64,000 bases of DNA from Nitrosopumilus sp. (GTDB taxonomy: Archaea; Thermoproteota; Nitrososphaeria; Nitrososphaerales; Nitrosopumilaceae): positions 1,559,849 to 1,623,848 of the forward strand of contig CBDBLX010000002.1 in assembly GCA_965207445.1 (NCBI GenBank), read 5' to 3'. Shown in pieces: positions 10,037-17,210 of the stretch. The notes under the pieces were generated by a model. The model did no database searches, had not been told where the DNA came from, and saw only the letters and a list, made by a program, of their open reading frames with translations. Both the position numbers and the translations under genes were made by a program. Every line of letters starts with the position of its first letter. Positions within the stretch are counted from its first letter, which is position 1.

Positions 10037-10733
10037 TCAGTATGCATGGGTGTTCATAGGCGAATATGGCATCAGTTTTGTCATTACTCACTCACGTGGT
10101 GCGGTGGTGTTAGATGTACACTGTCCGTTATTTGACATTCGAACCGCGGTGGATGGATACGCCGCATACAACAAATTCAAAACCAAACAGCGCTGCTGGG
10201 CGCATGTTTTGCGCGATGCCGAACTGCTGGCAGCCATGTATGGTGGCAATCTCGTAGAATTGCACAGAACACTCCAGCACATATTTCACGAGGCCAAACA
10301 GCTACTACCAGACACCACAGATCAACAACAACAAAAACAACTGCAAGACAACTGGATAGATCCCGTCATGGCAATTGCAGGCACATATACAGAACTAGTA
10401 ACACTCGTTTGGTGGCAAACTACTCAATGCGGCGCCAGACCTGTTTACATTTGTCAAATATCCGGGCATGCCACCTGCCAACAACAAATCCAAACGATCA
10501 CTGTGGTGGTGGCGCGTCATAATTCACAAAAAGATTCGTCAGATGTTTCGCAGTACAACAGGAATGGAAGTTTATGGTATATTGATGTCATGTATGATGA
10601 CTTGGTATGATCAGGACAAGGATCTTGTAAAGAATATCCATGACACCATTCATGGCAAGATAAATCATTCACCAAACTTCATCGCATAGTAGTAGATGTG
10701 TGTTGAGGTGTACAAGTAGGGGGTTTAACTTAC
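10037..10733 (+). pseudogene. IS66-family transposase remnant (frameshifted C-terminal part) with right end
   Basis: VDGYAAY...QRCWAHVLRD, then in another frame PDLFTFVKYPGMPPANNKSKRSL..VIIHKKIR; GGGGGTTTAACTTAC at 10719-10733 resembles the MITE1 TIR. Confidence 0.8.
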
Positions 10734-14017: not shown

Positions 14018-14623
14018 TTATGATTGAAAAGTATTCTTGTCATTTGATGTAGTGTCTTTCTTAGCAAAAGCATCAAAAGTACTTTCATTACGAGACACAT
14101 GTCCTCGATATCTGCCGCTGCCGCTACCACGACTAGCACCTCTTCTATTTGGTAGACGATTACTATCACGTCCCATTCTACGACCACTAGTTTTATTGTT
14201 GTCGGGTTTGTTAGAATTTTTGGTTTGTGTAGAATTAGAGTTGTTATCTTTTGTGTTGTTATTGTTTTTATTATTATTATTGTTAAAGTTTTGAGAACCA
14301 CTTTTATCATGTTGTGTCTGTTTTTCGAATTTACGCTTTTTGCCCATGTTTAACACCTCATATTTTTTATCAGCCTCGCAGATCTTCATCTCACCAGACA
14401 CTGGATCATGCATAGTTTCTAATCCACCTTCTGAGAGTAATAATCCTATAATATTCCATGTTTCAGATTCAGTAATATCAAACTTTGAGGTAATTGTAGA
14501 GAATTTTGTAAAATAACCATTTCGTGAATTTCTCAAGATAAATGATTCTATTTTTTTTTCCAAGGACATTTCGGGGCGCTTTTTGAACTTTCCAGACGAA
14601 CGCTTTGGTCTCATACCACTCAT
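14018..14623 (-). CDS. Hypothetical protein, possible winged-helix N-terminus with a basic N/G/R-rich low-complexity tail
   Basis: 201-aa ORF; TATA-like AT run ~25-30 nt upstream of the ATG. Confidence 0.75.
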   Translation of the reverse strand: MSGMRPKRSSGKFKKRPEMSLEKKIESFILRNSRNGYFTKFSTITSKFDITESETWNIIGLLLSEGGLETMHDPVSGEMKICEADKKYEVLNMGKKRKFEKQTQHDKSGSQNFNNNNNKNNNNTKDNNSNSTQTKNSNKPDNNKTSGRRMGRDSNRLPNRRGASRGSGSGRYRGHVSRNESTFDAFAKKDTTSNDKNTFQS

Positions 14624-14741
14624 TATAATTAATTTAAAACTTAGGACTATTTAATATGTGGTAATTACTTTTGAGACACTAAAAAATACCAAATAATAAA
14701 AAATTGAAATCTGTATTGTAAACACACAAGTATTAAGATGC

Positions 14742-14942
14742 GGTAGTTTGCGACTAGAACAGTCGCTACCACCTACCACTGTTAGATGTCATATTCAATG
14801 GCGTGCAGTTGACAGAGGGGATTTCTGTCGCACTGCAAAAGGACCGGTCGTTTTAGCAAACGCAAATCCCAAGCCAATTGAATGCAAAGTCAAGTGGTCT
14901 GACTATATACCAATGTTGATCCTTTGGAGATCAGTAGGTGGC
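14742..14942. ncRNA. Candidate structured non-coding RNA (multi-helix with pseudoknot), family not recognised
   Basis: Eight complementary segment pairs found by eye (listed in findings); locally GC-richer than flanks; no convincing ORF. Confidence 0.55.
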
Positions 14943-15195
14943 ACATTAGGCAGAATACACCTTACTTTATGTCTGCTATGTTATATTATACAGATTTTTG
15001 TATATAACGATGCGCAGTGTAATATTATTGTGTCAATTGTGGACAAAAGTTACATCTCACCTACGTCTCATCCCCACAACACATGAATGCGATTCACAAA
15101 CGCGCCAGACTAGTCATCCAGGTAATCATTTGACCGCTTTCTCACCTCTACCATTCCCATTAATAGTCTGAGAAGGTTATATGCAACTTTGACTT

Positions 15196-15240: not shown

Positions 15241-15479
15241 GTCTTAATGTATAGATTAATTTAAATATGAGAAAAAATATTATCATAAAACCTAAAATCT
15301 AAATTATTTTATTTATTCATATTTAAATTTTAAATGAATATATCAGTCAGGAAGGTTGGTTCACACAAACATAGAGATGATATATGGCACTTTTAGCCCA
15401 CCACACCATATTCGTCTATTTTGGAATCAGTAGTGCTGAGATTTACCTTTACAGATGAGCACATGAATCTTTTTTGGCG

Positions 15480-15700
15480 GCCTGCGCTTTCAAAATCTTT
15501 TAAATTCACTCAAATATGTGAATTGTCAATAAATTTGTACACGGCGTTTAGATGGGTCATTTTGCCAGCAGTATTCTGACTGTGTTATCAACTGCTCACT
15601 TGAGTATATCCCATACCTCTTTTATCGTATTCATATAAGGATATCCAGAAATTATATACTTGTGTAGCACAATAATATAACCACATAAATTATATACGAT
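15480..15700 (-). pseudogene. IS630-type transposase C-terminal remnant
   Basis: Minus frame SGYPYMNTIKEVWDILK*AVDN resembles the IS630 SPxLNPIExxWxxLK motif. Confidence 0.5.
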
Positions 15701-15810: not shown

Positions 15811-16071
15811 TCATTTTTCTAGTTTGGCAATATCCAAACCATCTTGCTCTAACATACCGAATATATCTGGTATTATGGTGGTATCTTTGGCGACTATATT
15901 CAGTCTATTTTCTATTGTGGACAAACGAGCGTCAACATCATCTAGTCTTTTTGAAATATAGTCAAATTTACTGTTCAGTTTATTTATCAACTCTTTATTC
16001 AACTGAGTAATTAAATTTCCATTAGCAATGTTAATTGCATCCAACACAAATTTTTTGTCATCATCATTCAT
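15811..16071 (-). CDS. Small coiled-coil hypothetical protein
   Basis: Heptad-like LDDVDARLSTIENRL; TTTAAA ~25 nt upstream. Confidence 0.65.
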   Translation of the reverse strand: MNDDDKKFVLDAINIANGNLITQLNKELINKLNSKFDYISKRLDDVDARLSTIENRLNIVAKDTTIIPDIFGMLEQDGLDIAKLEK

Positions 16072-16113
16072 ACAATATTGTCTCCATAAAATAATTTAAA
16101 GGTTTGAAGAGAC

Positions 16114-16323
16114 TGGATCCTTTGCATTAATCGCGGGTAACTTGCACGTTACTGCCATTGTCGCTTGTGCGACATTGATGCGCCCCGTAATATCACTGTC
16201 GTTACATGACAGACTCAAGACCCTTGGATTCACATGGTAAGATTATGCAGACTCAGGCCACTGCTCCTCCCATGGCTGCCACGCCAGCATTGCCGATGAG
16301 TGTAATCATTTGTTATTACCGTG
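16114..16323 (+). ncRNA. Second candidate structured RNA, possibly a non-coding part of a mobile element
   Basis: About ten helices; five G-U pairs work only on the + strand. Confidence 0.4.
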
Positions 16324-16328
16324 TATTG

Positions 16329-16477
16329 GTGTGAACCAAGCTCATTGGGCACAATAATGAAATCACATACTTATATTTGGTTACATTCGTGCCCGCATAT
16401 CGAATATCGTGCATGCGATACATTTAGCTAGGAGTTGTTTTTGAATAATCATGTCAGTCATGGAGGTTGGTTTACAC
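16329..16477. mobile_element. MITE family 3 copy (~148 bp, TIR GTGTGAACCAA)
   Basis: Homologous to the copies at 31531, 60058 and 61635. Confidence 0.88.
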
Positions 16478-16574
16478 GGTATATGGAATTTTCATTTTTG
16501 TCTCAAAAATGACTAGTCTCAAAAATTACTAGTCTCAAATCTAATCTCAATTCATCGACTCTAAAATAAACTTG

Positions 16575-17210
16575 TCATTTTTTTAATGTGGCAAACATCT
16601 TATCATACTTTGATTGTACATCAGTATTACACCCAAAAGTAGTCTCAGAATCATAATCTAAGCGCATCTTTTCAAGTGACTCACCCAACTTGTGAATTAT
16701 CGGCTCTATAACAAGAGCAGAGTCATTTTTTGCAAATTGCTTGCGTTGTTCTTCGTTTTTGCCTCGTGTAGGAAAATACTTTTTGTATAAATGGTCACGT
16801 ATACCATCTATCTCTTTGCGCATTACAATTTCACCAAGATCAAAGTGTCCTTGCTGATGATTTAACTCTGCATCATTGCAATCAGGACGCGCCCATGACA
16901 AACATGACCAAAACTCTGTTGCAATATCAAGGCGTGTAATCACAAAGAATATCTCACCTACTGTACGTTCTTTGTCTTGTGCATATGGTACGGCAAAATT
17001 ATCAAAAGTCTCAGAGTCATTACCGAACCCTTGTTCGTTTGTATAATGTTGCTGCTCTGCATTTACATATACAGAACCCACAGTCCAATGCGGCCTGTAT
17101 CGTATTGCACTGTATGCATCTTGAAACTCTGCAGGGTTTGCATCGGCCTTAAAGTCAGACCACTCAAGTAATTTATCAGGGAACCATTGTACAACATCAT
17201 GCTCTGACAT
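16575..17210 (-). CDS. DUF922-like hypothetical protein (putative Zn-peptidase fold)
   Basis: LEWSDFK...SWARP...LNHQQGHFDLGE...YDSET; the Glu of HExxH is replaced by Gln. Confidence 0.6.
   Translation of the reverse strand: MSEHDVVQWFPDKLLEWSDFKADANPAEFQDAYSAIRYRPHWTVGSVYVNAEQQHYTNEQGFGNDSETFDNFAVPYAQDKERTVGEIFFVITRLDIATEFWSCLSWARPDCNDAELNHQQGHFDLGEIVMRKEIDGIRDHLYKKYFPTRGKNEEQRKQFAKNDSALVIEPIIHKLGESLEKMRLDYDSETTFGCNTDVQSKYDKMFATLKK

Follow-up and report, generated by a model that had tools for sequence, protein, structure and literature searches.

A stretch of DNA from Nitrosopumilus sp. very probably encodes a lengthened version of a hairpin RNA that most Nitrosopumilus-type ammonia-oxidising archaea have kept. 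The stretch occupies positions 14742-14942 of the window, the 64,000 nucleotides of contig CBDBLX010000002.1 that were analysed and to which all coordinates refer. A preliminary description had singled it out as a stand-alone, possibly undescribed structured RNA of thaumarchaea, and the absence of Rfam matches, the homologues found in other genomes and the varying identity of the downstream gene support that proposal. We put at roughly 0.9 the probability that the element is an uncatalogued, conserved RNA gene. Its conservation, covariation, synteny and non-coding character are established by computation; that it exists as a transcript we infer with the same degree of confidence, and for its function we offer a proposal.

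All ten paired segments listed in the preliminary description lie where it placed them, nine as exact reverse complements and the tenth with the bulge that it had specified. The element is, as described, richer in G+C (46%) than its left (21%) and right (37%) flanks, and its single-copy status, reported for the window, holds across the 2.6-Mb genome. Compared with dinucleotide-shuffled controls, 14742-14942 folds better on both strands, with z -2.96 on the plus strand (1 of 200 shuffles as good) and z -5.51 on the minus strand (0 of 200). Sixteen of its 6-mers are matched exactly by a complement further downstream, whereas shuffles average 4.8 and none of 1000 reaches 16; a lone 8-bp complement, like the long-range helix drawn earlier, is seen in 20% of shuffles. 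From these counts, the set of helices exceeds chance and the long-range helix alone is at chance. The overlapping open reading frame at 14748-15086 shows no conservation at the protein level: anchor spacings shift by +2 and +5 nt among homologues and the frame is not conserved, tblastn gave no match over the element in the homologues, and Pfam gave none for the frame. One sequencing run, of what we guess to be DNA, held a single 213-nt contig of depth 2, covering 14779-14991 only and too thin to count; its one change turns a G.U pair into A-U on the minus strand.

The element matched no catalogued RNA. Rfam 15 gave no match in the window at the gathering threshold, two sub-threshold snoRNA matches (E 0.11 and 3.9) are attributable to chance, and neither the RNA nor its short form, block 1 (see below), was matched in 16 homologous loci (8 + 8). 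RNase P, SRP and 5S RNAs are, like the element, single-copy structured RNAs with a multi-way junction. A duplicate or divergent copy of one of these was rejected, in line with the missing signatures noted at the outset: full-scoring copies lie elsewhere in the genome, and the models miss this locus. The earlier suggestion of a ribozyme found nothing in its favour, as self-cleaving types (HDV-like, twister, hammerhead) gave no Rfam match and a 10-mer at 14866-14875, which we take to be twister-like, is not retained in homologues. Likenesses to T-box, Y RNA, K-turn, bulge-helix-bulge, HDV, twister and group II 5' ends, judged by eye, were dropped because the homologues keep none of them.

BLAST with the DNA of the element matched none of 100 relatives, and homologues were located by synteny rather than by sequence similarity. 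Among 29 other loci of the adjacent gene A (Table 1), three, all GC-rich, carry a co-linear element upstream, and most of the others have a protein gene in that place. With one of the GC-rich elements as the query, 5 of 150 genus genomes were retrieved at E <1e-112. Altogether, six relatives, belonging to two further lineages, have full or partial long homologues at this locus, with compensated helices. A non-circular check came from an HMM built from the five GC-rich sequences alone, for which this element is the top match in its own genome (E 0.013, model positions 4-252). Likewise, pairwise scores against the GC-rich clade reach z 9.5-13.8 over dinucleotide shuffles, compared with 1.2-1.6 for the flanks. 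This genome shares 95% identity in 23S rRNA with two GC-rich relatives and 91-92% with seven other relatives, indicating that it and the GC-rich relatives are close kin.

The third lineage is represented by genome G028, whose syntenic gap gave a match with E 2.5e-5, a value computed in 16 kb of chosen loci (eight loci). It retains the first hairpin and the two inner hairpins and has a different 3' end; its extension can be aligned, though weakly, with the GC-rich form (z 2.7), but not with the extension found in this genome (z -1.4). The CCAAA tip is present in all three long-form lineages. A match in another genome, G279, is at chance level (E 0.045). Pattern scans returned one stretch from metagenomes, five from GTDB (four thaumarchaeal records without any new variant and one coding match in a Chromatiales record) and three from viral contigs that lack the hairpin; the named records recovered by pattern are Nitrosopumilaceae, and the taxon names used here follow from them.

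On the minus strand, the RNA is predicted to fold into the parts listed in Table 1; the helix counts, which use anchors chosen by the analyst and three independent lineages, are not a blind test. P1 has z -3.45 in this genome on the minus strand, against +0.33 on the plus strand, and is probably the diverged counterpart of the ~100-nt family RNA. In 5 of 6 sequences, the minimum-energy fold on the minus strand has the topology of the three-way junction, and G028 has a related fold. The stem of P4 has a different sequence in each of the three lineages and retains its pairing, and its loop is always C-rich and 7 nt long. Between this genome and the GC-rich clade, P5, P5a and P3a differ by compensatory changes; the GACAUC linker is not recognisable in G028. 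The 3' part, with its three-way junction and C-rich 7-nt loop, is clade-specific.

The preliminary description had paired the loop of P4 with 14865-14870 as a pseudoknot. All six of its pairs are present here, five of six in the GC-rich clade and four of six in G028. The same segment can instead close a nested helix with 14840-14845, which is complete (6/6 pairs) in this genome and in 4 of 5 GC-rich homologues, with all three substitutions compensated; the equivalent helix in G028 has 5/5 plus 6/6 pairs. These pairings are mutually exclusive, with similar duplex energies. Given the pair counts across the three lineages, we consider the nested helix the better-kept state and the pseudoknot a possible alternative. 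The search of the syntenic gap proposed earlier did yield homologues, in which the pseudoknot is only partly kept. Two other helices were lost in the comparison. The long-range helix retains 3 of 8 pairs, in ungapped register, in five of five close homologues, competes with P5 and is probably a chance complementarity; the hairpin AGTCA/TGACT at 14888-14904 retains no pairs in three of three homologues.

Table 1. Features of the RNA locus and its surroundings, in window coordinates unless a locus is named.
Feature	Position	Strand	Basis
P1, long imperfect hairpin with U/G-rich 5' bulge and CCAAA tip loop (14923-14927)	14886-14968	-	predicted fold, family covariation, alignment
Three-way junction closed by P2 (14873-14882 with 14794-14802)	14794-14882	-	minimum-energy fold
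P3/P3a, nested hairpin	14840-14870	-	14865-14870 pairs with 14840-14845 or with the P4 loop
P4, hairpin with 7-nt C-rich loop (14817-14823, UCCC core)	14805-14836	-	comparison of stem and loop
Single-stranded linker, GACAUC motif in common with GC-rich clade	14773-14793	-	fold and comparison
P5/P5a, 3' hairpin with A-rich bulge	14740-14772	-	compensatory changes relative to GC-rich clade
Predicted TATA box of the RNA	15001-15007	-	A/T hexamer at fixed spacing
Predicted 5' end, start at about 14977	14970-14977	-	8-nt motif; start placed by its distance from the TATA box
Gene A, conserved hypothetical protein downstream of the RNA; synteny anchor	14018-14623	-	98 of 121 genus genomes
Conserved gene for a 211-aa protein; synteny anchor	16575-17210	-	136 of 151 genus genomes
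Degenerate dispersed repeat of ~100 bp, where relatives have an operator-like site	15020-15120		copies with E 2e-8 and 1e-6
Block 3	L072:2321-2409, L090:914-1003 and homologues	- and +, respectively	alignment A4

The evidence favours an RNA of ~240 nt, read from the minus strand between about 14977 and 14737 and served by its own TATA box, so that the right limit originally given for the element falls ~35 nt short of its end. We assign strand and ends with good confidence. The whole RNA (14737-14977) has z -4.16 on the minus strand (0 of 200 shuffles), against -1.34 on the plus strand (18 of 200), and the 149-nt 3' domain folds better on the minus strand in six of six sequences (z -2.8 to -4.9, against -0.5 to -2.9 on the plus strand). 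Read on the plus strand, the upper stem of the family would require 15 A.C mismatches, with 1 G.U. In this genome and in the three GC-rich homologues looked at, the first-stem anchor is preceded by an A/T hexamer at a distance of 43 nt; the distance is 43-44 nt in G028 and 41-44 nt in 43 of 48 upstream regions of short family members, for which a different hexamer pattern was used. Similar boxes, read by eye, stand ~30 nt upstream of tRNA genes in this genome. The 8-nt motif of the predicted 5' end is identical in this genome and in five of five GC-rich homologues, and its first base, 14977, lies ~30 nt from the TATA box. As for the 3' end, predicted at about 14737, U-tracts follow the last hairpin in this genome, and none was found behind it in the GC-rich clade.

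Some signals run contrary to this assignment: the tip stem of the family amounts to 22 G.U on the plus strand in a five-pair register, one position of P2 is A.C on the minus strand in 3 of 5 GC-rich homologues, and the P1 region of the GC-rich homologues folds about equally well on both strands. The plus-strand fold originally drawn, a pseudoknotted RNA (a ribozyme or similar) closed by the long-range helix, could draw on the plus-strand folding score, on some G.U pairs that fit that strand only and on the pseudoknot of the GC-rich clade, which keeps its five pairs on either strand. Yet no TATA-like element was found upstream on the plus strand of the GC-rich homologues, the closing helix is neither retained nor above chance level, Rfam ribozyme models do not match and the strand statistics and TATA spacing favour the minus strand, which leaves this version very improbable.

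A search with R1, a sequence-only model, gave two weak matches directly upstream of a homologue of the gene at 16575-17210. In the AT-rich majority of relatives, this gap contains three blocks: a hairpin of ~100 nt (block 1), a conserved stretch upstream of it (block 2) and a structured segment of ~75 nt on the other strand (block 3). Over 21 block 1 sequences, 93.3% of cells are paired and 16 of 28 pairs have changed on both sides; over 33 sequences, the values are 92.3% and 17 of 22. None of 500 shuffles did as well, a count that is not a probability because the rows are related, and slid controls were 25-52% paired. The letters of the loop and internal loop are invariant, and the stems covary freely. 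Block 1 RNA was found in 124 of 151 genus genomes, including 88 of the 98 good ones, at one place per genome, apart from a duplicated contig and a match on the opposite strand; the training set included three GC-rich sequences. At the family level it occurs in 32 of 151 genomes from 5 of 27 genera, with the same 32 strong matches in a repeat search, and it was found in none of 127 genomes that represent 19 other families of the order. Nine of ten weak matches of the family search with R1 were viewed and rejected, as none had the synteny genes and all read as coding or repeat DNA; two weak matches in the genus were coding. Genome G031 carries a strongly diverged GC-rich member (L170:958-1057, plus strand) that keeps the CCAAA loop and has no 3' extension.

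The RNA in the window is linked to this short family by a chain that passes through its long-form relatives only. Model R2, built without the GC-rich copies, has these five as its top five matches, at 15-19 bits and in the expected place, and neither R2 nor R3 matched the copy in this genome at E<10; this unscored copy is the weak point of the chain. The link is supported by synteny, by the CCAAA tip, by the block 2 site in GC-rich loci and by equal TATA spacing. Of the traits of the family, the window copy has the CCAAA tip on a long hairpin, the 5' bulge, the TATA box 41-44 nt upstream and the same locus; in place of the G-U-A/G-A internal loop below the tip, it has Watson-Crick pairs. We hold it quite likely that P1 is orthologous to the short family RNA. 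The best explanation of the long form would then be that one clade gained the 3' three-way junction with its C-rich loops, the linker and the terminal hairpin.

A matrix made from block 2 places an operator-like site upstream as its top match in five of five GC-rich loci; here, the site ranks 343 of 127,952 and overlaps the dispersed repeat at 15020-15120. Being palindromic and upstream of the TATA box, the site suggests control by a transcription factor. Block 3 appears to be a second uncatalogued RNA, of ~75 nt, which many Nitrosopumilaceae transcribe in the direction leading away from the family hairpin. It has a 10-bp closing stem, a highly conserved unpaired loop and a GAGUCAU 5' end preceded at a fixed distance by a TATA-like box, and its strand is fixed by 10 G.U against 3 A.C. 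It was not found in this genome, nor by exact pattern in four GC-rich relatives. Homology between block 3 and the 3' domain was rejected (z -1.0 to 1.4, no HMM match), and pairing between the two family RNAs is near shuffled values.

Relatives carry the RNA on the strand opposite to the homologue of the 211-aa gene and immediately upstream of that homologue, and here that gene is inverted and displaced; its product has no Pfam match and contains a QQGHFD motif resembling that of DUF922-type metalloproteases. Downstream of the family RNA there is a small membrane-peptide gene or a TFB gene, and here gene A, each with a promoter of its own. The product of gene A, possibly a winged helix with a long basic tail, belongs to no Pfam or NCBIfam family over cut-off, and its first match in the Atlas (0.86) is a lead only. 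In this genome and the GC-rich clade, the tail is a low-complexity, RG-rich segment of 88-118 residues; in G028 it has 52 residues and no RG pairs, and the open frames of most other relatives are much shorter. Coevolution of the RNA with the RG tail, which we had considered, is weakened by G028.

This arrangement also bears on whether the RNA is a cis-acting leader or riboswitch of gene A, in which the nested helix and the pseudoknot would form a switch and the 3' hairpin and U-tract a terminator. In six genomes the RNA indeed stands in the same orientation as gene A, 100-115 nt upstream of it, and the mutually exclusive pairings of 14865-14870 and the U-tracts of this genome would suit such a device. 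However, gene A has its own TATA-like element, as the preliminary description had observed, the pseudoknot is reduced to four pairs in G028, and in that genome ~800 nt with an IS remnant separate the RNA from gene A. Because the downstream gene changes across homologues, a riboswitch, one of the possibilities first raised, is unlikely, and we regard a leader of gene A as improbable.

The neighbourhood is full of dispersed repeats, which might suggest that there is no RNA and that the element is a palindromic DNA element or the relic of a mobile one. The repeat at 15020-15120 ends ~15 nt before the predicted TATA box, and another copy is likewise placed before the TATA box of a tRNA-Gly gene. 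An AT-rich, MITE-like dispersed repeat of ~120 bp lies at 15251-15369 and has 38 BLAST matches in the genome, one of them adjoining the 5S rRNA gene. Two or three more families of multi-copy non-coding repeats, with 80-93% identity, occupy 15370-15650 and 16113-16480. There is also an IS66 transposase fragment at 10050-10610 (plus strand, Pfam E 1.2e-7), and an 86-aa coiled-coil ORF at 15811-16071 (minus strand) that is present in only 7 of 121 genus genomes. The element itself, however, is single-copy, its G.U-type substitutions are strand-biased as RNA pairing predicts, its spacing to the promoter is fixed and its helices covary across genera, all of which makes a DNA element extremely unlikely.

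As for function, we tentatively favour, at somewhat less than even odds, a stand-alone RNA that regulates in trans by pairing its C-rich loops with ribosome-binding sites. The ~240-nt RNA would be transcribed from the minus strand, from about 14977 to 14737, under a promoter with a conserved operator-like site; the unpaired 7-nt UCCC loop, the CCAAA loop and the linker would be offered to the G-rich Shine-Dalgarno/start regions of target mRNAs, and 14865-14870 would either mask the C-rich loop, in the pseudoknot, or release it, in the nested helix. The pairing with mRNA and the switch are hypotheses only. As far as sequence can tell, the RNA has its own promoter and is independent of neighbouring genes. 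The genome carries a Shine-Dalgarno signal, with GAGG found 81 times at -20 to -11 compared with 11-20 in other bins over 1156 crude ORFs, and the C-rich loop could pair with it. When five exposed segments were compared with 2535 start regions of this genome, complementarity lay inside the range given by shuffles or at its upper end. Short family members lack the C-rich loop, and the base-pairing mechanism therefore cannot account for the conserved core, in which the CCAAA loop and the non-canonical internal loop are more suggestive of a protein site.

Alternatively, the RNA could work by binding protein, as a scaffold, a decoy or the RNA of a housekeeping ribonucleoprotein; its protein sites would be the CCAAA loop, the 5' bulge and the G-U-A/G-A internal loop, and the 3' domain would be an expansion segment. 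Its near-universal retention as a single copy in the genus, the invariant loop letters set in freely covarying stems, the lack of any mRNA target in the search of start regions and the RG-rich tail of gene A in this genome and the GC-rich clade would all fit. Against it, G028 has the long RNA and a gene A tail devoid of RG pairs, the internal-loop motif has been lost from the copy in this genome, and the RNA was not found in 22 of the 27 family genera searched, which is odd for a housekeeping RNA. We see protein binding as possible, and as nearly as likely as base pairing.

A guide for the modification or processing of rRNA or tRNA (H/ACA, C/D or U3-like) was also considered. Archaeal H/ACA guide RNAs have an ACA box after a hairpin and a bipartite rRNA target. 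The family RNA shares with them a long hairpin with an asymmetric internal loop, and on the plus strand there is a 9-nt match to 23S near position 1298. Unlike H/ACA RNAs, the element has no conserved ACA box (nor C/D boxes), canonical K-turn or conserved rRNA target: complementarity to rRNA never exceeds 9-11 Watson-Crick pairs and is located differently in this genome and in genomes G184 and G187, local similarity to 23S is within that of shuffles, and the family hairpin lacks a consistent target for a bipartite pocket. We accordingly give a guide RNA scant credence. A bipartite match of block 3 to the 23S of this genome near 1306 was discarded, as it is weaker in the 23S of the genomes that carry block 3.

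A bolder scenario can also be drawn, which we regard as a long shot. Most Nitrosopumilus-type archaea would have a cassette of two uncatalogued RNAs transcribed divergently. One of the two would either belong to an unknown ribonucleoprotein as its RNA component or regulate translation globally; in one clade, it would have gained a switchable domain, with a segment of six bases that closes a hairpin in one state and masks an anti-Shine-Dalgarno-like loop in the other.

Known regulators offer partial parallels. RsaE of Staphylococcus, in which an unpaired UCCC motif is described as blocking ribosome binding (PMC2790875), is likewise a stand-alone intergenic RNA with a conserved UCCC in a loop, in a host with a G-rich Shine-Dalgarno signal; unlike RsaE, the element is archaeal, has no similarity to it in sequence or by model, and bears C-rich loops only in its clade-specific extension. 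Methanosarcina mazei has archaeal stand-alone sRNAs of the kind proposed here, sRNA162, which is reported to pair through a single-stranded linker, and sRNA154, under the control of a transcription factor (PMC4152357). Homology of either to the element was not detected, and the control of sRNA154 recalls the conserved site upstream of the family RNA. According to the same review, no study of thaumarchaeal sRNAs existed in 2014 (PMC4152357). Table S6 of a Red Sea study lists a 113-nt thaumarchaeal 'hypothetical ncRNA' with a mapped start on contig KF901103 (PMC5069720). Compared by size and neighbours only, that RNA is of a size like the short family form, but the genes around it differ (cysQ, cysC side). 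The literature searched showed no prior description of the element or of the family RNA; the main text of 2026 preprints on prokaryotic non-coding elements has neither Nitroso- nor Thaumarch-, and their catalogues may hold the RNA. The genome paper of N. maritimus reportedly listed candidate non-coding RNAs, and a prior mention of the short form is possible.

Archaea of the Nitrosopumilus type have small genomes and are major ammonia oxidisers in the ocean, and to our knowledge almost nothing has been described of their regulatory RNAs. This structured RNA, retained in 88 of the 98 good genus genomes, has a fixed promoter architecture and another conserved RNA alongside. It can be tested at once, since expression is expected in cultured members and should be visible in stranded transcriptomes that already exist. 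The long form analysed here illustrates the gain of a whole new RNA domain within one clade. If the reading as a cassette with a switchable domain were true, it would be a modular, conformationally gated regulator of a kind undescribed for archaea in the literature searched.
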